Position numbers and translations under genes: made by a program
Source of the DNA: Felixounavirus LF110P2
Direction: 5' to 3' (one strand)
Sequence record: OZ035782.1
DNA length: 64,000 nt
Shown here: piece by piece, positions 52,174-62,676 of the stretch
Numbering within the stretch: position 1 is the first letter of the stretch
How the letters are laid out: every line of letters begins with the position of its first letter
The notes under the pieces: model-generated
The model's database searches: none
The model's input: the letters and a program-made list of their open reading frames with translations, nothing else
What the model was told of the DNA's origin: nothing

Positions 52174-52580
52174 TAACGAATAACCTGTGAGACTTGAATT
52201 GCTTCAGTTACTGACAAGTCACCTACTTTCTCTTCTTTGATAAAAGTGAAGGTGAGTTCAACAGGTTCTTGCTCTTCTTGCTCTTCTTGCTCAACTGGAA
52301 CACCATTAAGCTCATCAAAGATTGATTGAGTTGTCCAGTCTTCTCCACCATCTGGATAGTGGATTACGTAGAGAGGGAACTCTGTGTTAAACCAACCAAA
52401 TACAGGGCAGCCATCTTCATCATCTCGCACCCGATGAAGGGTGCTTCCAGACCCTGTAAAACGAAGGAATAAATCTCCGTTGCACTTGAATATTACTGCG
52501 TCGGCAAAACCGATGTCTTCTCGACCATCATGACCAAATGTGTCAACCTTTACTTGAATATCTCTAACATCTTTATTCAT
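52173..52580 (-). CDS. hypothetical protein
   Basis: 135-aa ORF. Confidence 0.45.
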   Translation of the reverse strand: MNKDVRDIQVKVDTFGHDGREDIGFADAVIFKCNGDLFLRFTGSGSTLHRVRDDEDGCPVFGWFNTEFPLYVIHYPDGGEDWTTQSIFDELNGVPVEQEEQEEQEPVELTFTFIKEEKVGDLSVTEAIQVSQVIR

Positions 52581-52971
52581 AAAAACCTCTCTCTGCTTGT
52601 TCGATTTTTGCTCTTAAGGTTTCGCAATGCTGTAGATGGTAGTTAGCTTCTTGTTCATGTGTTGCTAACTGCCTTTCCAGAACAGATTTATAGTAACCTG
52701 CAAGTTGCTCTTTTGTCAATGGGTGCTCTGAAATAATATCAAGTCCACTTTCACCAAGAGGGTTGAATTGTCCATGTTCGTTGACATTGTAAGTCTCAAA
52801 CTTGAACAGGCCATTGTTCACAGACTCAATAGGTGACAACTCAACAAGCTCTACAGTAAACCGTGTATATACCTTGTCACCTCTTGAAACCACATTGTTC
52901 CCGACAATGCGTACAAGCGAGCCATTACGAGTGTACTTAAAAGTTCCAAAGTCACTAGCCCAAAGTTTCAT
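52573..52971 (-). CDS. hypothetical protein
   Basis: 132-aa ORF. Confidence 0.45.
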   Translation of the reverse strand: MKLWASDFGTFKYTRNGSLVRIVGNNVVSRGDKVYTRFTVELVELSPIESVNNGLFKFETYNVNEHGQFNPLGESGLDIISEHPLTKEQLAGYYKSVLERQLATHEQEANYHLQHCETLRAKIEQAERGFYE

Positions 52972-52987
52972 AGTTTTCTCCTTAGAA

Positions 52988-53011
52988 AATAAAAAAGGCT
53001 CCCGAAGGAGC
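52988..53011 (-). terminator. rho-independent terminator (minus strand)
   Basis: On minus strand GGCTCC-TTCG-GGAGCC followed by TTTTTTATTTT, just after the endolysin gene. Confidence 0.55.
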
Positions 53012-53022
53012 CTATGAAGATA

Positions 53023-53487
53023 TTACTTTGGGTATAAACTGTCAAGATAAATATCAGCTTCCATTCTACGTCTGTTTTTCAGTCCGTTTGAAGTGACTTT
53101 CTTACCTTTGACTGTAACCTTGTTCCACCACTGCATAGCTTCTGCACAACCTACCTTATCACCATCGTTGTGGCGCTTGATAAATGTGGAGTCCTGCATA
53201 GCTGTGATACCAATGTTGTATGTTTCACTTACAAGTGCGTCAAACTCATTCTGAGAAGTTGGAACCTTGACGGCTTTGTTCACTGCTGCAACGAACTTTT
53301 CAACATCTGCGAGAAGATACTGTTCAGCTTGTTCAGCGGTAATCTTCATACCCATCTTAACAGGTTTACCAGCAATACGGATTGTCCCATACCCAATTGT
53401 GGGGATTCCAGCAGAATCTTCGTAAGCCTCTAGCTTAAGACCTTCAAAGAACTTAATAGCGTCTAAACCTTTTCTTGAGAGTTGCAT
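53023..53487 (-). CDS. endolysin, GH24 lysozyme
   Basis: N-terminal KFFEGLKLEAYEDSAGIPTIGYG (EG...Y.D..G..TIGYG catalytic region) typical of T4 e / lambda R-type lysozymes. Confidence 0.8.
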   Translation of the reverse strand: MQLSRKGLDAIKFFEGLKLEAYEDSAGIPTIGYGTIRIAGKPVKMGMKITAEQAEQYLLADVEKFVAAVNKAVKVPTSQNEFDALVSETYNIGITAMQDSTFIKRHNDGDKVGCAEAMQWWNKVTVKGKKVTSNGLKNRRRMEADIYLDSLYPK

Positions 53488-54620
53488 TATGCCTCCCCTG
53501 CTGGATTAACTGTAACTGTTGCTGCATTAGATGTTACAGAGCCACCTGCGCCAGTAACTACACAGGTGTAGCTTCCTGCATCAGCAGCGGTTGCTCCTTC
53601 TTTGGTGTAGGTTGCAGTAGTTGCATCGAGGATGTCTTCCTCATCTTTCTTCCACTGATAACCTGTTGCACCTGTTGCCACAACATTCAACGTTAAGGTC
53701 TCACCTTCATTGATTTCTTGATTGGTTGGCTGTTGAGTGATGACAGGAAGTGCATTCACAGTAACTGTTGCAGGGCTAGAAGTAACAGAACCACCTGCAC
53801 CTGTTACAACGCAAGTGTATGAACCTGCATCTGCTGGCAGAGCACCAGACTTACTATAGGTTGCATCTGTAGCCGAAGGAATGTCAGAGCCATCTTTCTT
53901 CCACTGATAACCTGTTGCACCTGTTGCAGTCACTTCCAAGTTGATGTTTCCACCCTCATTGATGGTCTGGCTAGAAGGTTGTTGTGTAATCACAGGTAGT
54001 GCGTTCACAGTCACTGTTGCTGCATCTGAGGTAACACTTGTTCCACCCTCTCCAGATACAACACAAGTGTATGAACCAGCGTCAGAAGGTGCTACTGACT
54101 GTTTTGTGTAAGTTGCAGAATTGGCACTAGGGATGTCCTCACCATCCTTCTTCCACTGATATCCAGTGGCGTTAGTTGCTAGAATGTTTAGAGTAAGTGT
54201 GCCACCCTCATTGACTGTTTGACCTGTTGGTTGCTGAGTAATTGCTGGTGGCTTAATAGCATCCTTCAACTTAGCATTCAACATTGAGAACGGCTTAACT
54301 CTTGCCAACCATTCACAGTAAATTGTGTCAACATCTTTACCATTGATGATTGCATACTGCAAATCCATGAAGAAATCAGCAGTTCTCATCTGTGCACCAA
54401 CACTGTAAAGCAATTCATCACTAAATGGAACTTTGTAGTCTGGTTTGTAGTCAAACTTCTCAACTTCTGCAATATCAGCTTCAGGCCAATATGAACTATA
54501 GGTAAGTGGTAAAATAGCCTCTTGATATGTTCTAAAATCATATCTCTTACCAGCCTTTACATTTGCAATGAAACCCTTCACAAACTCTTTGAAGTCTGGG
54601 TAAGTCTTTGCTTTAATCAT
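53487..54620 (-). CDS. protein with three tandem Ig-like repeats
   Basis: Three ~85-aa repeats (ITQQP..QT.NEGG...L.V.ATGATGYQWKKDG.DI.....ATY.K......DAGSYTCVV.G.GGS.TS..ATVTVNA); N-terminal domain paralogous to the next gene. Confidence 0.6.
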   Translation of the reverse strand: MIKAKTYPDFKEFVKGFIANVKAGKRYDFRTYQEAILPLTYSSYWPEADIAEVEKFDYKPDYKVPFSDELLYSVGAQMRTADFFMDLQYAIINGKDVDTIYCEWLARVKPFSMLNAKLKDAIKPPAITQQPTGQTVNEGGTLTLNILATNATGYQWKKDGEDIPSANSATYTKQSVAPSDAGSYTCVVSGEGGTSVTSDAATVTVNALPVITQQPSSQTINEGGNINLEVTATGATGYQWKKDGSDIPSATDATYSKSGALPADAGSYTCVVTGAGGSVTSSPATVTVNALPVITQQPTNQEINEGETLTLNVVATGATGYQWKKDEEDILDATTATYTKEGATAADAGSYTCVVTGAGGSVTSNAATVTVNPAGEA

Positions 54621-54988
54621 TTCTTTTTAGCCTCTAAATGTGCGTTTAGTCTAAAATAACCTTTGTGATGCGGAGATACATCACCAACAACAATACCTTT
54701 GACCTTATAACCTTTACCAATTACATACTGGATATCCATAAGGAATCTTCCAAGACCAACAATATGGAACATTGGATATAATAGATTCTCAGAATCTGGA
54801 ATATTGATTTCAGGTTTGTAGGTGCGTTGTTCGCTTGTTGGTGTAATATCTTCTTCAGGCCATTTACTGAGTCTCCATGTCAAAGGTGTTGGGATAACAT
54901 CATTAAGGTTGTACCTTTCACCATTTTGCACGGAATTGATATAGGATTGTAGGAAGCAATAAAAGTCTTTTGCACTCTTAGCCTTCAT
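54617..54988 (-). CDS. hypothetical protein, paralog of the N-terminal domain of the Ig-repeat protein
   Basis: MKAKSAKDFYCFLQSYINSVQNGERY vs MIKAKTYPDFKEFVKGFIANVKAGKRY. Confidence 0.5.
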   Translation of the reverse strand: MKAKSAKDFYCFLQSYINSVQNGERYNLNDVIPTPLTWRLSKWPEEDITPTSEQRTYKPEINIPDSENLLYPMFHIVGLGRFLMDIQYVIGKGYKVKGIVVGDVSPHHKGYFRLNAHLEAKKK

Positions 54989-55035
54989 TAAATATCCTTA
55001 TAAATAGTTAAAGGGGCATCAGCCCCTATTCACAC

Positions 55036-55626
55036 TTAAGCTTTGGTCTTAAGTAGGTTCTTAAGTTTTTTAAGATTCATACTCTCATCAAACTTAAAAC
55101 CAAATCCATTGACATAATCAATGAACTCGGATTTCTTACTAAGTGACAATGCGTAACTCATATCAAAGTTCTTACTTGTTTCTGCGTCTGGACTAGAGTT
55201 CACATCAAATGAAATTTCTGTAGGTTCTTGCTTACTTTTTCTCATATTATCAACCAACAAACATGTATAGTTTGCTGGATAGAAGTTTACACTACCATCA
55301 ACGTAGCTGTACTTATTATTATGGATAAGGTTTGAAAATACCTTAAGGAATGTTTCTGAGTCGTGGCAAACAAGTTTGAATTGGCTGCTCTCTCCAAGCG
55401 CAACTAATGAGTACGGACTTTCACTATCAAAGTCATAATTTGGATTCGATGCCGTTACTGTTACACGCATCAAGTTATTAGCAATGGTCTTCTGTTTAAA
55501 AGAATTTTGAACATAGTGAAGACCTCTATCACACTGATTGACTAGCTCTTTAAGTAGGTCATTTGCATATGGTGAATTAATTGATACAGAGCCATCACTA
55601 TTGTAATTAAAACTTACTGTTAACAT
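55036..55626 (-). CDS. hypothetical protein
   Basis: 196-aa ORF. Confidence 0.45.
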   Translation of the reverse strand: MLTVSFNYNSDGSVSINSPYANDLLKELVNQCDRGLHYVQNSFKQKTIANNLMRVTVTASNPNYDFDSESPYSLVALGESSQFKLVCHDSETFLKVFSNLIHNNKYSYVDGSVNFYPANYTCLLVDNMRKSKQEPTEISFDVNSSPDAETSKNFDMSYALSLSKKSEFIDYVNGFGFKFDESMNLKKLKNLLKTKA

Positions 55627-55853
55627 TTTTCAGTTCTCCTGCGATTTATAATTTTGCTGCAATAGAGAAACGAAGTAAACTCACTGGAAGAAACCATTAA
55701 GTGTTGTTCACTAGATTGAGCCATTGCCCTGAAATACATTCCAGTCAAAGCATCATAGTGACTATTCTTTCCAATTGAGGTTATATAGCCATGACTCTTT
55801 GCAGTTTGATATAAATCTATAATATCTGCGATTTCTAATTGGGAACTACACAT
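55620..55853 (-). CDS. hypothetical protein
   Basis: 77-aa ORF. Confidence 0.4.
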   Translation of the reverse strand: MCSSQLEIADIIDLYQTAKSHGYITSIGKNSHYDALTGMYFRAMAQSSEQHLMVSSSEFTSFLYCSKIINRRRTEKC

Positions 55854-56092
55854 AGATAATCCTCTTGTCTTCTGTAATTTTGAAAGAACAGGTACAGACC
55901 AATTTCAGAGGATGAATAGTAGATTAACTCTACCCTTTTTGATTCCTTACAGTGATTGGTATTCTTACCTTTCTTCGGTTTATTTGATTTTCTCATTAAG
56001 TCTCCTTTGTAGAACAAGGCAGACCTACAGCTTTAAGTAAGATGGTACAGTAATCCATACAACAAGTCAAGAACTATTGCAAGTTAAAAAAG

Positions 56093-56245: not shown

Positions 56246-56617
56246 ATGAAAAACAGAACAAACAAAGGCCAGTTTAAAAAAGGCCAGTCTGGAAACCCAT
56301 CTGGAAGACCAAAAGGCTCACGTAACAAAAGTTCACTCGTAAAAGCTCAACTGACCATTGATAATTCTGCTGAGTTTGCTGCAAAGTTGTTTGAAGCGAT
56401 TGTTACAAGGGACGCTGCTAAGCTTGCAGAGTTCGGTTTGACGACTGACGATGTAAACCTGAAGTCGATGATGGAAGCTGGTAAAACTATCATGACCCAC
56501 TCAGCAGGTGAGATGAAAGCGATTGCAGCAGACACTAAGAAGACCCCTGATAATGGTGGTCAACCTCAGACAGATAACAAACCAACGTTCTCTGCTGTAG
56601 CGACTCTCAAAAAATAA
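56246..56617 (+). CDS. hypothetical protein with Gly-rich basic N-terminus
   Basis: N-terminus KGQFKKGQSGNPSGRPKGSRNK, a motif common in phage proteins; function unknown. Confidence 0.5.
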   Translation: MKNRTNKGQFKKGQSGNPSGRPKGSRNKSSLVKAQLTIDNSAEFAAKLFEAIVTRDAAKLAEFGLTTDDVNLKSMMEAGKTIMTHSAGEMKAIAADTKKTPDNGGQPQTDNKPTFSAVATLKK

Positions 56618-56699: not shown

Positions 56700-58115
56700 A
56701 TGAGCGAATTATTTAAACATGCGCACCTTCATGCAGGTCGAACTGAAAATGGTGCTGTAAACCATACTTCATCAATGTCTGCTCTTGTAGACTTTTACAA
56801 AGCTGCTGGTTCGAGCCGTAGCAATGTAGAAATCTTACCAGACCTGTTCTACAAAGCTTTGCGTGAGGATGTTGATGTTGCAGTTCGTATTTTGCTTCAC
56901 ATGCGAGATGTACGAGAAGGTATGGGTGAGCGTAAAGCCTTCAGAACTGTTTTGCTTCAAGCAATTGAAGATAAAGTTTTAGAGCCTACACAGGTTCTTC
57001 GCATTATGGATAAGATTGCAGAACTTGGTCGTTTTGATGACTTCAAAGTCTTCGTAGGTACTCGTTTCGAGACAGATGCCTTCAAACATTTAGAAGCAGC
57101 ATTACTAGACCCTGCAACAGCAGGTTTGGCAGCTAAGTGGTTACCACGAGTCAAACCACGTCATAAGCAGTTTGTAAAACGTTTCTGCAAGTTTGCCAAC
57201 TTGAGTGAGAAAGAGTACCGCACACTGTTGTCTGCACTATCTGATACAGTTGAGCAAAAAATCTCTGCTAATGAGTTTGGTAAGATTGACTACAGTAAGA
57301 TTCCTTCACTTGCTGCTGCACGTTACCAAAAACTGTTTAACCGTAAAGATGGAGAACGCTACAAAGCTTACATCGAGTCCTTATCAAAGGGTGAGACTAA
57401 GATTAATGCTGGTGCTGTTTACCCATACGATGTAATTAAATCTGTTAAGCATGGTAATGCAGATGTTGCTAATGAGCAGTGGAAAGCACTACCAAACTGG
57501 ATGGCAGAGGGTGAAAACATCTTGTGTATGTCTGATGTTTCAAGCTCAATGTCTTGGGTGAATTTTGGTTCAATTACTGCTCTTGATATTGGTGTTTCAC
57601 TTGCATTGTATGTAGCAGAACGTAATACAGGTTGCTTTAAGAATGAGTTGATGGTTTATTCAACAAACCCTCACTTCATCGAACTGAGTGGTGATTTACG
57701 AAACCGTCATCGTCAGGTGATGCGACACGTTGAATATGGCTCAACTAACTTACAAGCTGCTTTTGACCGTATTCTTGAGACAGGTAAAAGAAACAACTTG
57801 ACTCAGAAAGATATGCCAAGTAAGCTTATCATCTTCTCCGATATGGAGTTCAATCAGGTTGATGGAGCTAACGGTCGTACAAACTTTGAAGCAATTCAGA
57901 GTAAGTACAAAAAAGCTGGATACGAAATGCCACAACTGGTATTCTGGTACTTAGCAAACCGTAATGGCACTTGCGAAGTGTCTGTTAAGGATAACGGTGT
58001 AGCAATGGTATCAGGGTTCTCTCCAGCCACTTTAAAAGCTCTGCTTGGTGGTGAGAAGTTTGACCCAATCAGTGTAATGCTCAAAGCAGTAATGATTGAC
58101 CGTTATATCTGGTAA
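56700..58115 (+). CDS. vWA-domain protein (MIDAS motif); possible Ro60/TROVE-like protein
   Basis: C-terminal vWA signature: DVSSSMSW (DxSxS), GSTNLQAAFDRIL, IIFSDMEF; N-terminal 270 aa unassigned; Ro60-like call is inference from domain order and the adjacent tRNA-like RNAs. Confidence 0.5.
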   Translation: MSELFKHAHLHAGRTENGAVNHTSSMSALVDFYKAAGSSRSNVEILPDLFYKALREDVDVAVRILLHMRDVREGMGERKAFRTVLLQAIEDKVLEPTQVLRIMDKIAELGRFDDFKVFVGTRFETDAFKHLEAALLDPATAGLAAKWLPRVKPRHKQFVKRFCKFANLSEKEYRTLLSALSDTVEQKISANEFGKIDYSKIPSLAAARYQKLFNRKDGERYKAYIESLSKGETKINAGAVYPYDVIKSVKHGNADVANEQWKALPNWMAEGENILCMSDVSSSMSWVNFGSITALDIGVSLALYVAERNTGCFKNELMVYSTNPHFIELSGDLRNRHRQVMRHVEYGSTNLQAAFDRILETGKRNNLTQKDMPSKLIIFSDMEFNQVDGANGRTNFEAIQSKYKKAGYEMPQLVFWYLANRNGTCEVSVKDNGVAMVSGFSPATLKALLGGEKFDPISVMLKAVMIDRYIW

Positions 58116-58280: not shown

Positions 58281-58357
58281 CTCTGTTTAGCTCAGCTTGG
58301 TAGAGCGTTCCGTTTGGGGCGGTAAGGCCGGAGGTTCAAGTCCTCCAACAGAGACCA
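58281..58357 (+). tRNA. tRNA-Pro (anticodon UGG)
   Basis: Cloverleaf by eye: acceptor CTCTGTT/AACAGAG, D-arm GCTC..GAGC, loop TTTGGGG, T-arm GGAGGTTCAAGTCCTCC, CCA encoded; one mismatch in anticodon stem. Confidence 0.6.
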
Positions 58358-58364
58358 AATTAAT

Positions 58365-58442
58365 GTTCCAGTAGACAAAATGGTATAGTCATCACTCTTT
58401 CAAAGTGGATATTTGAGGGTTCAAATCCCTTCTGGAACGCCA
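58365..58442 (+). tRNA. tRNA-Glu (anticodon UUC)
   Basis: Acceptor GTTCCAG/CTGGAAC, loop CTTTCAA, T-loop GGTTCAAATCC, CCA encoded. Confidence 0.6.
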
Positions 58443-58448
58443 GTTTTG

Positions 58449-58522
58449 ACAGAAGACCAATTACAGCAAACTTAATCTTATTCATCTGAAGGTAAATCGG
58501 ACAAAGAAGAGATTTGGTCTGG
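58449..58522 (+). ncRNA. conserved stem-closed element, copy A (candidate small RNA)
   Basis: ACAGAAGACCAATTACAGCAAA...TTGGTCTGG; 7-bp closing stem AGACCAA/TTGGTCT. Confidence 0.4.
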
Positions 58523-58533
58523 TCATTAAGAAT

Positions 58534-58610
58534 TGCGGGTATAGAGAAAGGGCGTCTCACATGTCTCATTAGCATGGTATCGGCAGGTTCGACTCCTGCA
58601 CCCGCCTCCA
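58534..58610 (+). tRNA. tRNA with CAU anticodon (Met/fMet/Ile2 unresolved)
   Basis: T-arm GCAGGTTCGACTCCTGC, 3' acceptor ACCCGCC + T + CCA; position 1:72 unpaired (U:C); loop CTCATTA. Confidence 0.5.
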
Positions 58611-58615
58611 AATTT

Positions 58616-58680
58616 ACAGAAGACCGTTTACAGCAATATTTATTAAATTTTTAGCGGAAAAATTGAAAGATACGGTCTGG
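58616..58680 (+). ncRNA. conserved stem-closed element, copy B
   Basis: ACAGAAGACCGTTTACAGCAA...ACGGTCTGG; closing stem AGACCGT/ACGGTCT (compensatory change relative to copy A). Confidence 0.4.
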
Positions 58681-58693
58681 TAATACTAAACAT

Positions 58694-58770
58694 GGTTAGG
58701 AAGCACATAAGGTATGTGCGGTCGCCTGTTAAGCGAATGGCACAGGGTTCGAATCCCTGACTAACCGCCA
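58694..58770 (+). tRNA. tRNA-Asn (anticodon GUU)
   Basis: D-arm GCAC..GTGC, loop CTGTTAA, T-arm CAGGGTTCGAATCCCTG, CCA encoded. Confidence 0.6.
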
Positions 58771-58839
58771 AATTTAGGAGAGAAGCGATTGCTCACCGAT
58801 TTGTAAGGTGCAAGTCCTTAGCCTGAATAGAAATTAAAT

Positions 58840-58927
58840 GTGTCGTTATCCCGTAGATGGTAGCGGTGGGGACTGTAAATCCCTTGTCATTGAGACTCGG
58901 TAGGTTCGACTCCTACACGGCACACCA
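58840..58927 (+). tRNA. tRNA-Tyr (anticodon GUA), long variable arm
   Basis: Anticodon stem-loop GGGGA-CTGTAAA-TCCCT, long variable arm, T-arm GTAGGTTCGACTCCTAC, CCA encoded; 88 nt. Confidence 0.6.
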
Positions 58928-58932
58928 ATAAA

Positions 58933-59010
58933 GGTTATGTAGTTTAATTTGGTTAAAATACTCCCCTGTCACGGGAGATGATGAGGGTTCAAATCCCTTC
59001 GTAACCGCCA
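58933..59010 (+). tRNA. tRNA-Asp (anticodon GUC)
   Basis: Acceptor GGTTATG/CGTAACC, anticodon stem-loop CTCCC-CTGTCAC-GGGAG, T-loop GGTTCAAATCC, CCA. Confidence 0.65.
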
Positions 59011-59071
59011 ATTTTGAGAGGGCTATTTAGCCCCTCCCTTAAAGGGTTCTTACGAGTATCCTTTAAAGGAG

Positions 59072-59148
59072 CAGAAGACCAAATACAGCAAGAATGTATG
59101 ATATTTTCAAGCCAATTCAATTTTGAAAAAATTTAAAACTTGGTCTGG
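59072..59148 (+). ncRNA. conserved stem-closed element, copy C
   Basis: GCAGAAGACCAAATACAGCAAG...TTGGTCTGG; closing stem AGACCAA/TTGGTCT. Confidence 0.4.
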
Positions 59149-59161
59149 CTCAAAAAATTTA

Positions 59162-59293
59162 CAGAAGACCGTTTACAGCAAAACTTAAACAATCTATTTC
59201 TCCGGTAAAGAAAAGGCGAAGGTTCGATTCCTTCACTCGGCAGATGTCGAGTTGGTGTAATGGTAGCACTTAAGATGATAAACAACGGTCTGG
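59162..59293 (+). ncRNA. conserved stem-closed element, copy D, enclosing a circularly permuted tRNA-like domain (YrlA/Y-RNA-like candidate)
   Basis: Closing stem AGACCGT (59166-59172)/ACGGTCT (59285-59291); inside, in order: T-arm GAAGG-TTCGATT-CCTTC (59218-59234), ACTCGGC (59235-59241), loop AGAT, GTCGAGT (59246-59252, pairs with ACTCGGC), D-arm GTGT-AATGGTA-GCAC (59255-59269). Confidence 0.45.
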
Positions 59294-59298
59294 TAATT

Positions 59299-59434
59299 AT
59301 CTTTGTAGATAAGTTATTAAGCTTACCTGTGAGTATGCGACCACAAAGGGTGAAAGGGTAAATTCTAGATTTAAACCCAAAAAGGCACATCGCTACAGAC
59401 CTTAAGCAAGTCTGGGTAGCTTATCTACAAAGAT
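59299..59434 (+). ncRNA. structured element closed by a perfect 15-bp inverted repeat (candidate small RNA)
   Basis: ATCTTTGTAGATAAG (59299-59313) pairs with CTTATCTACAAAGAT (59420-59434); encloses 106 nt with internal hairpins. Confidence 0.35.
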
Positions 59435-59442
59435 AATTTAAT

Positions 59443-59518
59443 GGAAGTGTAGCAGAATGGTGATGCGGCAGACTTTTAATCTGACAGGCGATGGGTTCGA
59501 ATCCCTCCACTTCTACCA
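59443..59518 (+). tRNA. tRNA-Lys (anticodon UUU)
   Basis: Acceptor GGAAGTG/CACTTCT, loop CTTTTAA, T-loop GGTTCGAATCC, CCA encoded. Confidence 0.6.
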
Positions 59519-59523
59519 AAAAT

Positions 59524-59600
59524 GGTTCAGTCGCAGATAAGGTAATGCAAGGGTCTCATAAACCCTATGAATGTGGGTTCGATTCCCATCTGAACCTCCA
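59524..59600 (+). tRNA. tRNA with CAU anticodon (Met/fMet/Ile2 unresolved)
   Basis: Acceptor GGTTCAG/CTGAACC, anticodon stem-loop AGGGT-CTCATAA-ACCCT, T-loop GGTTCGATTCC, CCA. Confidence 0.65.
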
Positions 59601-59601
59601 A

Positions 59602-59677
59602 GCTGGTATAGTTAAGAAGGTTATAACACTCCCCTGATAAGGGAACATCGGTGGTTCGATTCCACCTACCAGTACCA
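59602..59677 (+). tRNA. tRNA-Ile (anticodon GAU)
   Basis: D-arm GTTA..TAAC, loop CTGATAA, T-arm GGTGGTTCGATTCCACC, CCA. Confidence 0.65.
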
Positions 59678-59692
59678 ATCTCAATAAAGTTG

Positions 59693-59721
59693 TTGACACT
59701 GAGATGTGACTACTTTATAGT
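59693..59721 (+). promoter_or_regulatory. candidate internal sigma70 promoter within the tRNA array
   Basis: TTGACA (59693-59698), 17-nt spacer, TATAGT (59716-59721). Confidence 0.5.
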
Positions 59722-60014
59722 AACTAAAATACTTCATAATATGTATAATTCAAACACCAATACATGAGCGTTAGACGTAACACAATGTGGGGAAATTTGT
59801 TGTACATATTCTGAATAGTTTTCGTTGCGTAGCGTCTATTTTGCAAATTTAAAATAAATGCAAACGACAATGTTTTTCTGGCAGTAGCTTGATAGGCTAA
59901 ACACCAGTGAGGTCTTCCAATCCCTCATCAAAGAATTTGGCGTACTCGCCCACGGTATGATTAATAAGGTGGGCATCTTTAAGGGCTTTCTAAGAGAGTC
60001 TTTAAAGATTAATG

Positions 60015-60091
60015 CACCCTTAGTTCAATTGGATAGAGCAACGGTCTTCTAAATCGTTAGTTACAGGTTCGAATCCTGTAGGGTGTGCCAA
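60015..60091 (+). tRNA. tRNA-Arg (anticodon UCU)
   Basis: D-arm GTTC-AATTGGATA-GAGC, anticodon stem-loop ACGGT-CTTCTAA-ATCGT, T-arm ACAGGTTCGAATCCTGT, CCA. Confidence 0.65.
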
Positions 60092-60232
60092 TTAGTTAGC
60101 AGATTACTTAGACGACCTAAGCGGGTCTTCCTGTAGGGAGGTTGTCTGTATCTCATGTTTTCCAGAACATGTAAATAATCTGAGAAGGGGCTTTACAGTG
60201 TTGAGATAATACGGTAAGCTTCGAATTGTAGT

Positions 60233-60315
60233 GTGGGACGATGTTAAGACTCTAAGGCATGAGCAACGGCCTCCAAAACCGTTTCAAAGGGGTTCAACTC
60301 CTCCGTCCCATGCCA
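60233..60315 (+). tRNA. tRNA-like gene, Trp-type anticodon CCA, non-canonical (7 extra nt between acceptor and D-arm)
   Basis: 3' part canonical (loop CTCCAAA, 5-nt variable, T-loop TTCAACT, acceptor GTCCCAT+G+CCA), but the pairing 5' strand GTGGGAC lies 7 nt further upstream than a standard cloverleaf allows. Confidence 0.4.
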
Positions 60316-60328
60316 AAGTCTTATTAGG

Positions 60329-60416
60329 GGTAGGTAGCGGCTAATGGCAGCCAAACAGTCTTGAAAACTGTTGCCACTGTAGAGATACGGTGAGGGTTCG
60401 ACTCCTTTACTTACCG
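60329..60416 (+). tRNA. tRNA-Ser (anticodon UGA), long variable arm, CCA not encoded
   Basis: Anticodon stem-loop AACAGT-CTTGAAA-ACTGTT (like E. coli tRNA-Ser UGA), long variable arm, T-loop TTCGACT, acceptor GGTAGGT/ACTTACC + G, then CCT. Confidence 0.55.
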
Positions 60417-60673
60417 CCTAATAAGATTTAAAGCCAAGCTTCATTCGGATGTTGCTTTGGTATACCGCGTGTATTGTTGTACGCACTGATAAAGCACCTA
60501 GTAGGTGTCACGGAGAAGAGATAATATCAAGCTCTCCAAAGGTTCTAGTCACCGGATTAAACAAGACTATGCAAAGACCTTTTTAGGTCTTTTTAGAGGG
60601 CTTCTAAGGTTATTACAGCTTGTTGTGGAACCTTGTTGCTTAGGTTCTTAGAAGTTCTCTAAAAAGATTTAAT

Positions 60674-60751
60674 GGGAGATTGATGGTAATTGGTAAACCT
60701 ATCTCGCTTAGAACGAGATGTTTGAGGGTTCGAATCCCTTGTCTCCTACCA
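60674..60751 (+). tRNA. tRNA with Leu-type anticodon UAG, short variable arm
   Basis: Anticodon stem-loop ATCTCG-CTTAGAA-CGAGAT, T-arm GAGGGTTCGAATCCCTT, acceptor GGGAGAT/GTCTCCT, A73, CCA; variable region only 4 nt. Confidence 0.5.
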
Positions 60752-60758
60752 AATTAAT

Positions 60759-60834
60759 GCAGGTGTAGCAAAATGGTTATGCGGCTGACTCTTAATCAGT
60801 AAGACGATGGGTTCAATTCCCTCCACCTGTACCA
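60759..60834 (+). tRNA. tRNA-Lys (anticodon CUU)
   Basis: Paralog of tRNA-Lys(UUU) at 59443; loop CTCTTAA; T-loop GGTTCAATTCC; CCA. Confidence 0.6.
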
Positions 60835-60840
60835 AAAAAT

Positions 60841-60916
60841 GGGGTCATAGTTTATATGGTTAAAATTCGAGTTTTGCAAACTTGGGAACTGAGTTCAATT
60901 CTCAGTGACTCCACCA
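60841..60916 (+). tRNA. tRNA-Ala (anticodon UGC)
   Basis: Acceptor GGGGTCA/TGACTCC with G3:U70 wobble (Ala identity element); loop TTTGCAA; T-arm CTGAGTTCAATTCTCAG; CCA. Confidence 0.7.
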
Positions 60917-60922
60917 ATTAGT

Positions 60923-60997
60923 GCATCCATAGTTTAAACGGGAAAATTACAGTCTTCCAAACTGAGGTTGAGGGTTCGATTCCCTCTGGATGCTCCA
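60923..60997 (+). tRNA. tRNA-Gly (anticodon UCC)
   Basis: Acceptor GCATCCA/TGGATGC perfect; loop CTTCCAA; T-arm GAGGGTTCGATTCCCTC; CCA. Confidence 0.65.
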
Positions 60998-61003
60998 AAT
61001 AAT

Positions 61004-61079
61004 GCTCCTATCGTATAATTGGCTATTACGGTTGCCTTGTAAGCAACTTATCAGGGTTCGAATCCTTGTGGGAGCACCA
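61004..61079 (+). tRNA. tRNA-Thr (anticodon UGU)
   Basis: Anticodon stem-loop GTTGC-CTTGTAA-GCAAC perfect; T-loop GGTTCGAATCC; CCA. Confidence 0.7.
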
Positions 61080-61175
61080 ATTCAGAGGTCAAGTGAAAGA
61101 CCGCTTTGAGTCAACTGAAGACCGTAACAAATTCCACGGAGTTGAGTTAGCGGCACAACTTCAGACCTCTTTCAC

Positions 61176-61250
61176 ACTCGCTTAGTTTATATGGTAAAAC
61201 ACCACCCTTACAAGATGAAGAAAAAGGTTCAAGTCCTTTAGTGAGTACCA
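61176..61250 (+). tRNA. tRNA-like gene, Val-type anticodon UAC, weak anticodon stem (possible pseudo-tRNA)
   Basis: Good acceptor (ACTCGCT/AGTGAGT), D-arm GTTT..AAAC, T-arm AAAGGTTCAAGTCCTTT and CCA, but anticodon stem around CTTACAA pairs at only 3 of 5 positions. Confidence 0.4.
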
Positions 61251-61251
61251 T

Positions 61252-61329
61252 GTTCCAGTATCCCAATTGGCAGAGGATGCAAGCTCAAACCTTGTATTAG
61301 TGACGGTTCGAATCCGTCTTGGAACACCA
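61252..61329 (+). tRNA. tRNA with Leu-type anticodon CAA, short variable arm
   Basis: Leu-like D-loop (CCCAATTGGCAGAGG), anticodon stem-loop GCAAG-CTCAAAC-CTTGT, T-arm GACGGTTCGAATCCGTC, A73, CCA; variable region about 6 nt. Confidence 0.5.
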
Positions 61330-61334
61330 ATTTT

Positions 61335-61410
61335 GCAGGATTAGTTCAAATGGATAGAGCAACAGTCTACGAAACTGTTAATAGGGGTTCGAATCCCTTA
61401 TCCTGCGCCA
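61335..61410 (+). tRNA. tRNA-Arg (anticodon ACG)
   Basis: Acceptor GCAGGAT/ATCCTGC perfect; anticodon stem-loop ACAGT-CTACGAA-ACTGT perfect; T-loop GGTTCGAATCC; CCA. Confidence 0.75.
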
Positions 61411-61428
61411 GATAAGCAAGAGGAATTT

Positions 61429-61671
61429 ATGCAAACATTAATCGTCGTTGAACATGAAAATCCCAATAGTATTGAGTTTGTAAGGGTTCCCACTATAGAT
61501 ACCCACATTTTCTTAAAAGTCGGATGGGAATGCGACCCAATAAAAGTAGAAAGATTTATTGGTCATTGCTTTGGTGGAAGACAACTTAAAAGTGTCAATT
61601 TTGAGACAATGTTACCAGAAAGCTCAGAAACAAGTAATAATGCTTACCTCCTTACGAGGGTTAGACAATGA
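61429..61671 (+). CDS. hypothetical protein embedded in the tRNA array
   Basis: 80-aa ORF with ATG start directly after tRNA-Arg(ACG). Confidence 0.4.
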   Translation: MQTLIVVEHENPNSIEFVRVPTIDTHIFLKVGWECDPIKVERFIGHCFGGRQLKSVNFETMLPESSETSNNAYLLTRVRQ

Positions 61672-62225
61672 GATACTTAAAATATGCTTCATGGATTTTC
61701 TTAGCTTTGCTAGAACCACTTGCAGCAATACTAGCAGTTATCTTAGCACCTTTCGTAGTTCCATTCTACAGTGAGAAGAAAGGACATCTACCTTTCGGAT
61801 TTAGATGGATGGAAACTTATGACAACCCAATTGATGGTGATGAAGGTCACGTTAAAAGATGGGCTAATATTAGATGGATTGGTAAGCTTGGTGTCTATAT
61901 GCAGAGAGTCGGTTGGCTCTGGAGAAACAAAGCTTATAACTTCTCTTACCATGTGTTAGGAAGAGATGTAAAAGATGTTACTAAGTGGAAAGGTAATATC
62001 AACGTAAGTTCTAACCCTGAAGATAATCAGACAGGTTATCTCCTAATGTGGAACAGTAATTCTTGGGGATTATTCGCTTTTATCCCATCAATTAAAGTCT
62101 TTGGTAAACAGTTTTACTGGAGAATTTATGTTGGATGGAAACTTAAAAGTGTTGTCCCAGAAGAAAGAGCATTCTCAAGGGAAAGAGTTATGTTGGCATT
62201 CTTTATTCATCCACTGAGAAAGTAA
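61668..62225 (+). CDS. hypothetical protein (Trp-rich) embedded in the tRNA array
   Basis: 185-aa ORF with hydrophobic N-terminus; ATG 61668 overlaps the previous stop. Confidence 0.45.
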   Translation: MRYLKYASWIFLALLEPLAAILAVILAPFVVPFYSEKKGHLPFGFRWMETYDNPIDGDEGHVKRWANIRWIGKLGVYMQRVGWLWRNKAYNFSYHVLGRDVKDVTKWKGNINVSSNPEDNQTGYLLMWNSNSWGLFAFIPSIKVFGKQFYWRIYVGWKLKSVVPEERAFSRERVMLAFFIHPLRK

Positions 62226-62233
62226 AGATTTAA

Positions 62234-62309
62234 AGGGGATTAGTTTACAAGGTTAAAACCTCGGTCTTTGAAATCGAAGAAGTTGGTTCAATTCCAACAT
62301 CCCCCGCCA
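62234..62309 (+). tRNA. tRNA-Gln (anticodon UUG)
   Basis: D-arm GTTT..AAAC; anticodon stem-loop TCGGT-CTTTGAA-ATCGA; T-arm GTTGGTTCAATTCCAAC; CCA; coordinates anchored to flanking ORF stop/start. Confidence 0.6.
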
Positions 62310-62311
62310 AT

Positions 62312-62390
62312 GCTCCATTACTCCAATTGGCAGAGAGGCCAGACTTAAAATCTGTGTTATGTATCGGTTCGAATCCGATATGGAGTACCA
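62312..62390 (+). tRNA. tRNA with Leu-type anticodon UAA, short variable arm
   Basis: Leu-like D-loop (CCAATTGGCAGAGAGG); loop CTTAAAA; T-arm ATCGGTTCGAATCCGAT; A73; CCA; variable region about 7 nt. Confidence 0.5.
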
Positions 62391-62395
62391 AATTT

Positions 62396-62471
62396 AGCGG
62401 TATAGCATAACTGGCAATGCAGCAGTCTCTGAAGCTGTCTTATTAAGGTTCAAATCCTTATGCCGCTGCCA
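62396..62471 (+). tRNA. tRNA-Gln (anticodon CUG)
   Basis: Anticodon stem-loop GCAGT-CTCTGAA-GCTGT; T-arm TAAGGTTCAAATCCTTA; CCA. Confidence 0.6.
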
Positions 62472-62502
62472 CTTCTAAGGGTTCTTACGAGAGTCCTTAA
62501 AT

Positions 62503-62578
62503 GTGGCCTTATCATAAATGGTAATGACCCATGCTGTGAACATGGTCTATACGGGTTCAAATCCCGTAGGTCACCCCA
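62503..62578 (+). tRNA. tRNA-His (anticodon GUG)
   Basis: Anticodon stem-loop CCATG-CTGTGAA-CATGG perfect; T-arm ACGGGTTCAAATCCCGT; discriminator C73 + CCA; no encoded G-1 (preceding base is T). Confidence 0.65.
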
Positions 62579-62584
62579 ATTTAT

Positions 62585-62660
62585 AGTCCAAGTAGCTTAT
62601 ATGGTTAAAGCGCGTGTCTGAAAAACATGAGAAGAGGGTTCAAATCCCACTGGACTACCA
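62585..62660 (+). tRNA. tRNA-Phe (anticodon GAA)
   Basis: D-arm GCTT..AAGC; anticodon stem-loop CGTGT-CTGAAAA-ACATG; T-loop GGTTCAAATCC; CCA; one acceptor mismatch. Confidence 0.55.
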
Positions 62661-62676
62661 ATTTCAAAGGTGCTTA

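Follow-up and report, generated by a model that had tools for sequence, protein, structure and literature searches.

A hexamer decoration protein with three immunoglobulin-like domains and a paralog of its capsid anchor in Felixounavirus LF110P2

A 64,000-nt stretch of Felixounavirus LF110P2 (OZ035782.1; the whole stretch is called the window) carries two overlapping minus-strand genes that encode a 377-aa protein (53487–54620) and a 123-aa protein (54617–54988). Its sequence identifies the 377-aa protein as the hexamer decoration protein of Felixounavirus, which is called Hex-Dec in phage Bas63, gp20 in Sf14, and gp36 in Felix O1; its location on the capsid has been seen in orthologues. It consists of a capsid-binding domain (CapBD) at the N-terminus and three immunoglobulin (Ig)-like domains. 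The best explanation of the whole locus, held with high confidence, is that the larger gene encodes the decoration protein and the smaller gene arose by an old tandem duplication of the anchor only.

Felixounaviruses are used in phage therapy and in biocontrol of Salmonella and Escherichia coli. Hoc-type Ig fibres are exploited as platforms for display, and a role in adherence to mucus has been suggested for them. Because of these therapy, biocontrol, and display uses, knowledge of the anchor and of recombination-driven Ig number is practically useful. The main gene is not new, having been characterized in two 2025 cryo-electron microscopy (cryo-EM) papers (PMC12609058, Sci Adv; PMC11821841, Commun Biol). 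What remains novel is the small, conserved CapBD-only paralog, which is absent from both.

Hexamer decoration protein

Searches of the PDB with phmmer matched the 377-aa protein to 9ncf_S (E 3.4e-277) and 9c2d_S (E 2.9e-167) over residues 1–372. Chain S of 9NCF is the "Immunoglobulin-like domain protein" of Bas63, and chain S of 9C2D/9C3A is the "tail protein" gp20 of Shigella phage Sf14. Both orthologues were resolved by cryo-EM as Hoc-like decoration proteins, Hex-Dec in Bas63 (PMC12609058) and gp20 in Sf14 (PMC11821841). The orthologue is a monomer in the centre of the facet-edge hexamers of the T=9 capsid and occurs nowhere else; its N-terminal CapBD has ~118 residues and two pseudo-C2 lobes (PMC12609058, PMC11821841). 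In Sf14, gp20 residues 1–118 bind the hexamer, and Arg79 and Arg107 are salt-bridged to Asp221 of the major capsid protein (MCP) (PMC11821841).

The CapBD of the 377-aa protein spans aa 1–118 (54267–54620, minus strand). Residues 1–120 align without gaps to the modelled 120–122-residue CapBDs of Sf14 gp20 and Bas63 Hex-Dec. Arg79 (QMRTADFF) and Arg107 (LARVKPF) are both conserved at the same positions as in the solved orthologues. The CapBD is covered by no model in Pfam or NCBIfam.

Mass spectrometry (MS) of virions detected Felix O1 gp36 with 44% coverage (PMC3185647) and also found Sf14 gp20 (PMC11821841). Felix O1 gp36 is the orthologue by position, as ORF35 encodes the lysin, ORF36 a "tail protein," and ORF37 a 123-aa hypothetical protein. 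The gene site in the window also matches the Hex-Dec pattern, lying immediately upstream of the endolysin and outside the structural module. In Bas63, the Hex-Dec gene lies >10 kb outside that module (PMC12609058). No counter-evidence to the capsid location of Hex-Dec was found.

An original prediction made from the letters of the window had placed both open reading frames (ORFs) exactly where they were found, on the minus strand, and had suggested that the product may be a virion decoration or adhesion protein. The decoration proposal is borne out by the capsid location and virion MS of the orthologues, and neither a non-Ig fold nor absence from virions was encountered.

In the proposed mechanism, the CapBD would form a small pseudo-two-fold helix/hairpin domain. 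A single copy would occupy the acidic centre of every facet-edge (pentamer-proximal) hexamer, 60 in all, as shown for the orthologues. Anchoring would occur partly through Arg79 and Arg107 salt bridges to MCP Asp221. The three acidic I-set Ig domains would run from the C-terminus of the anchor as a flexible fibre.

GenBank, PHROG, and UniRef instead call the 377-aa protein a tail protein, a label inherited from the Felix O1 gp36 "major tail protein." The protein matches phrog_3995, "tail protein," at E 1e-209, most relatives are annotated in the same way, and its Ig region also has a likeness to the Ig domains carried by major tail proteins (phrog_158 and phrog_853). However, the 2010 Felix O1 label was sequence-based and rested on shared Ig domains only, and the gene is >10 kb away from the structural module (PMC12609058). 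Two independent cryo-EM reconstructions (9NCF and 9C2D) place the N-terminal domain of the orthologues in capsid hexamer centres. The tail-protein reading was rejected on these structures and is given almost no credence. The name is a legacy of the 2010 annotation that the structures contradict, and hundreds of records in GenBank, PHROG, and UniRef need their "tail protein" corrected to "Hoc-like head decoration protein." UniRef names even the 123-aa paralog "Tail protein."

Immunoglobulin-like repeats

The three Ig-like repeats are encoded on the minus strand at 53997–54248 (repeat 1, aa 125–208), 53748–53996 (repeat 2, aa 209–291), and 53499–53747 (repeat 3, aa 292–374). Pfam searches of the 377-aa protein returned Ig_3 (E 1e-33), Ig_2 (E 1e-27), and I-set (E 8e-26), each in three stretches and all over the gathering cut-offs. 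Ig_3 (PF13927) scored 115.9 bits against a cut-off of 30, and I-set (PF07679) scored 90.4 bits against 23.7. The best stretches are residues 124–189 for Ig_3 in repeat 1, 209–288 for Ig_2 in repeat 2, and 292–366 for I-set in repeat 3. The Ig-like (I-set) assignment made in the original prediction is thus supported, and the motifs that it listed for the three tandem repeats (ITQQP, ATGATGYQWKK, DAGSYTCVV, and ATVTVN) are all present. It was right about a tandem period but gave sizes of ~245 nt and ~85 aa, which are corrected here to 249–252 nt and 83–84 aa.

Repeat finding located three in-register DNA copies, 249 and 252 nt apart. By direct alignment, the repeats share 70–74% pairwise identity in protein and 66–69% in DNA, and third-codon-position identity between repeats 2 and 3 is only 0.42. 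The low third-position identity indicates that the duplication is old and was kept by selection, in line with the earlier statement that it was not recent. Tandem Repeats Finder reported no 249-nt array in 52500–56000, as nucleotide identity is below 70%; it found only two 9-nt mini-repeats (ACCTGTTGC x2, ATGATG motif). This mini-duplication, which codes for ATGATG, lies at 53660–53681 and 53909–53930, within Ig repeats 2 and 3, and the matching residues of repeat 1 are ATNATG.

The Ig region matches many Ig proteins in the PDB by phmmer, including titin, Robo, contactin, and GhpA. The array is acidic, with an isoelectric point (pI) of 4.05 and a net charge of -15. The top non-phage match of the array (53487–54250) is the Aureispira grappling-hook protein GhpA (PDB 9FLP, E 6.6e-69, 13 matched stretches). 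A bacterial contact-dependent predation filament thus uses the same I-set subtype.

One to four Ig domains per Hex-Dec are predicted across the genus (PMC12609058). Aligned with 53499–53996 of the window, the second Ig domain of Felix O1 ORF36 (L002:1156-2040) is a hybrid with the head of repeat 2 and the tail of repeat 3, joined at GATGYQWKK. This hybrid indicates that Ig number changes by in-register recombination between diverged repeats.

By analogy with T4 Hoc, the Ig domains probably adhere weakly to glycans of host or mucosal origin, or else influence how particles aggregate. Three points call for caution about this role. The Ig domains were too flexible to resolve in both maps (PMC12609058, PMC11821841), the Bas63 authors call the role and essentiality of Hex-Dec unknown (PMC12609058), and no phenotype in adhesion, aggregation, or fitness is on record for any Hex-Dec of the Ounavirinae.

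Comparison with known decoration proteins

Hex-Dec of Bas63 (Escherichia phage JohannRWettstein, a Felixounavirus) is an orthologue with a near-identical CapBD, the same I-set repeats, and the same site beside the endolysin (PMC12609058). It has four Ig domains in 460 aa, whereas the protein of the window has three. Sf14 gp20, from the sister genus Mooglevirus, is an orthologue with the same layout of a CapBD and three Ig domains and with Arg79 and Arg107 conserved. It is more divergent, and its Ig repeats carry ITTQP in place of ITQQP.

T4 Hoc resembles Hex-Dec as an acidic, non-essential monomer of hexamer centres with an outward string of Ig-like domains. However, the capsid-binding domain of Hoc (domain 4) is C-terminal, after the Ig domains, and the anchor of Hex-Dec is N-terminal. 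The Bas63 authors describe the Hex-Dec CapBD as larger than that of Hoc, with a distinct, pseudo-C2 topology and minimal sequence conservation (PMC12609058). Unlike Hoc, Hex-Dec is limited to facet-edge hexamers. PHROG "Hoc-like head decoration" profiles match the 377-aa protein at residues 120–290, 128–205, and 295–370 only and never in the first 119 residues. Hex-Dec is functionally Hoc-like, yet it is neither a member of the Hoc family nor a homologue of the Hoc anchor.

Phage T5 pb10 (PDB 5LXK and 8ZVI), like Hex-Dec, occupies hexamer centres with a capsid-binding domain at the N-terminus followed by a C-terminal Ig-like domain. Its Ig domain matches Hex-Dec at E 5e-12, and only Hex-Dec residues 132–206 align. 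It carries a single Ig domain, and no CapBD-only paralog emerged for T5, although no search aimed at one was made.

CapBD-only paralog

The 123-aa protein is 38% identical to aa 2–100 of Hex-Dec over 101 aa (BLASTP, E 4e-17) and has no significant BLASTP match to the Ig region. The two proteins are thus paralogous in the N-terminal domain only, as the original prediction held. In phmmer searches of the PDB, residues 2–117/118 of the paralog align to residues 3–117/118 of the solved homologues, with E 1.2e-11 for 9ncf_S. The paralog also matches phrog_4463 (function unknown) at E 3e-80. Across the paralog and Hex-Dec CapBD families, 29 alignment columns are invariant.

An AlphaFold2 model of the paralog, built from an alignment that included distant family members, has a pLDDT (predicted local distance difference test score) of 77.6 and a pTM (predicted template modelling score) of 0.76. 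An earlier model from a shallow alignment, with a pLDDT of 55, was discarded. Foldseek searches of the PDB with the retained model returned only 9c2d_S and 9ncf_S, both at a template modelling score of 0.72 and probability 1.0, with the next match at E 0.76; the input alignment held Hex-Dec CapBD sequences, so this fold test is not fully independent of sequence homology. Taken together, the alignments and the model assign the paralog to the CapBD family with a predicted CapBD fold. No match to Pfam, NCBIfam, or PADLOC was obtained, and these databases gave no sign of defence or counter-defence.

The paralog differs from the Hex-Dec CapBD in charge and in capsid-contact residues. It is basic (pI 9.1, net charge +3.8), whereas the Hex-Dec CapBD is neutral. 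The residue facing Arg79 of Hex-Dec is Gly78, and every paralog has Gly there, even the 45%-identical P0098. Arg107 is replaced by His or Gln in paralogs and is kept as Arg only in P0098.

The CapBD family is tiny: an exhaustive profile search of 1.84 billion representatives yielded 12 clusters at 50% identity. When the paralog or the CapBD was the query, word-indexed homologue searches found close relatives only. Distant members (P0100–P0104), from uncultured metagenomic contigs, are 24–26% identical to the paralog and have the same anchor domain fused to a single display module, which is Big_2, I-set, or a Lys-rich tail. These fusions mark the CapBD as a modular anchor for display domains. 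The P0100 (CapBD-Big_2) contig was the sole context examined, and its upstream gene is not a CapBD paralog (E 3.6).

Conservation and expression

An intact 122–124-aa paralog ORF is present in about 232 of 252 related records from Felixounavirus and Mooglevirus. In both genera, the order paralog, Hex-Dec, endolysin is invariant and the coding regions overlap. A divergent metagenomic contig of 87 kb also carries the trio, with the paralog 45% and Hex-Dec 53% identical. The ratio of nonsynonymous to synonymous substitutions (dN/dS) is 0.06–0.17 for the paralog, with dS >1 between genera, and 0.02–0.06 for the Hex-Dec CapBD. Both are under purifying selection. In Felix O1 array data, ORF36 and ORF37 peak at 60 min with the structural genes, and the maxima of the neighbours on either side, ORF35 and ORF38, come at 25 min (PMC3185647).

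A separate paralog is missing from about 8% of the related genome records. In Salmonella phage SP3_SHan-2021 (MW296865.1, L004:2501-3379), the complete genome of a phage isolated on Salmonella, a single 292-aa chimera replaces the paralog/Hex-Dec pair. It consists of paralog residues 1 to ~50 followed by the remainder of Hex-Dec with two Ig domains, and the joint falls at a shared WPExDI motif. From its sequence, the chimera is attributed to unequal recombination between the paralogs at WPExDI. The two N-terminal lobes thus appear interchangeable. In Shigella phage Z31 (MN655999.1, L003:2498-3070), the paralog is missing and Hex-Dec is divided between two ORFs of 134 aa and 55 aa, being truncated within the first Ig domain with most of the Ig array deleted. 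This locus suggests that both the paralog and Hex-Dec are dispensable for propagation.

Possible roles of the paralog

The paralog is a functional, late-expressed, dispensable accessory protein with a capsid-anchor fold. A decaying, non-functional duplication remnant would agree with its absence or fusion in about 8% of relatives and with the lack of a known function. That reading was rejected on the dN/dS values of 0.06–0.17 at dS >1 between genera, and it is also opposed by the intact ORF in about 232 records and in the 45%-identical lineage and by the late-regulated transcript. It is considered extremely unlikely.

The preferred reading, put forward tentatively, is that the paralog still targets the MCP hexamer centre, transiently or sub-stoichiometrically, as a placeholder or competitor for Hex-Dec. 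The 123-aa gene arose by old tandem duplication of just the anchor domain, and its stop codon overlaps the Hex-Dec start. A "bald" placeholder or competitor of this kind could set where and how many Ig fibres mount. The hexamer centre is lined with Asp (PMC11821841), and the complementary basic charge of the paralog was counted in favour of capsid binding.

Several observations count against binding to the capsid. The paralog went undetected when Felix O1 virions were analysed by MS (PMC3185647). It is apparently also missing from the VpaE1 virion set, as judged from gene numbering; that set equals the Felix O1 set minus gp23, plus gp54, gp58, and gp68. The Bas63 and Sf14 structure papers neither mention nor model it (PMC12609058, PMC11821841), and it was not found in the Sf14 supplement (PMC11821841). 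Both papers report no density on non-edge hexamers (PMC12609058, PMC11821841). Neither Arg79 nor Arg107 is kept, and the missing paralog in about 8% of records indicates that it is dispensable for propagation.

If the paralog does modulate decoration, it would offer a simple genetic handle to tune or engineer capsid display and would help explain why Hex-Dec sits on one hexamer class only. As a two-gene system, Felix O1-like phages would set the number of adhesive Ig fibres per head. No comparable two-gene system was found described in the literature for Hoc-type decoration proteins.

A broader form of capsid binding, in which the paralog is an unrecognized "bald" capsid-binding protein that competes with Hex-Dec, primes its site, or fills the 20 three-fold hexamers, is possible but somewhat doubtful. 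The specific case of a bald plug for the 20 three-fold-axis hexamers that Hex-Dec cannot bind would complete the hexamer-centre coverage of the T=9 capsid. It fits the CapBD fold, the late co-expression, and the basic charge against an acidic hexamer centre. The paralog also lacks Arg79, whose Asp221 partner is mis-oriented in the three-fold hexamers of Sf14 (PMC11821841), and icosahedral averaging would smear out an asymmetric 14-kDa monomer located on a true three-fold axis. However, the structure papers describe those hexamers as empty of density (PMC12609058, PMC11821841), and the paralog went undetected in Felix O1 virion MS, and apparently in VpaE1 too, though proteins present in 12 copies, among them the candidate portal gp53, were detected. 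The plug is improbable.

A nearly equal alternative to the preferred reading is that the paralog was neofunctionalized, keeping the fold but not capsid binding and acting on another target in late infection. The loss of both capsid-contact arginines, the absence from reported virion proteomes and maps, and the charge reversed relative to the Hex-Dec CapBD all point this way, as does a rate of evolution 2–3 times faster than that of the Hex-Dec CapBD. However, linkage, start/stop overlap, and co-regulation with Hex-Dec are conserved over deep divergence, the N-terminal lobe of the paralog replaces that of Hex-Dec in the SP3_SHan-2021 chimera, and no other functional family was matched in Pfam, NCBIfam, PADLOC, or the PDB. 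A new target is plausible, though it is held as tentatively as a retained, transient or sub-stoichiometric role at the hexamer centre, which stays the preferred reading.

Gene organization

The paralog, the orthologue of Felix O1 ORF37, overlaps the Hex-Dec gene at 54617–54620 on the minus strand, where its stop and the Hex-Dec start share an ATGA (AAGAAATGATTAAA). Annotations of Felix O1, JH2, Sf13, Michonne, and 3HA14 show this overlap too. ATGA-type stop/start overlaps are usually linked to translational coupling. Downstream, the endolysin start shares 1 nt with the Hex-Dec stop in a TAATG junction. The endolysin (53023–53487, minus strand, 154 aa) is of the T4-lysozyme type and matches Pfam Phage_lysozyme at E 3.9e-41, as expected from the original prediction of an endolysin next door. 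It is the third gene of the conserved trio and stands outside the decoration function. Its adjacency to Hex-Dec is conserved synteny and no evidence for a decoration role.

Two minus-strand hairpins bound the three-gene unit of paralog, Hex-Dec, and endolysin. A terminator-like hairpin (AGGCTCC-TTCG-GGAGCCT with a T-run) lies 3′ of the endolysin at 52996–53013 and is the counterpart of Felix O1 terminator t35 (PMC3185647, Table 2); the AYO145A record also annotates a terminator there. A second hairpin (GGGGC-TGAT-GCCCC), read from the sequence at 55013–55026, lies 5′ of the paralog, with 24 nt (54989–55012) between it and the ATG. It is identical to Felix O1 terminator t38 (PMC3185647) and is likewise a terminator in the AYO145A record. 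A sigma-70 promoter scan gave fewer sites than expected by chance, none positioned to drive the paralog/Hex-Dec pair. Since the t38 hairpin is just upstream, and in Felix O1 ORF37 and ORF36 are late and ORF38 is middle, the late promoter must lie within or overlap the 24-nt spacer.

Identity across the locus is 95–99% in dozens of Felix O1-like phages whose hosts are E. coli, Salmonella, and Shigella. Upstream of the unit and divergent from it, the plus strand encodes a 123-aa Lys/Arg-rich protein (56246–56617), whose JH2 orthologue is annotated DUF5681, and a 471-aa protein of unknown function (56700–58115). Large tRNA clusters are typical of Felix O1-like phages. In the window, 26 tRNA genes (58281–63585, plus strand) cover most amino acids, with two each for Met, Lys, Gln, Arg, and Ser and three for Leu.

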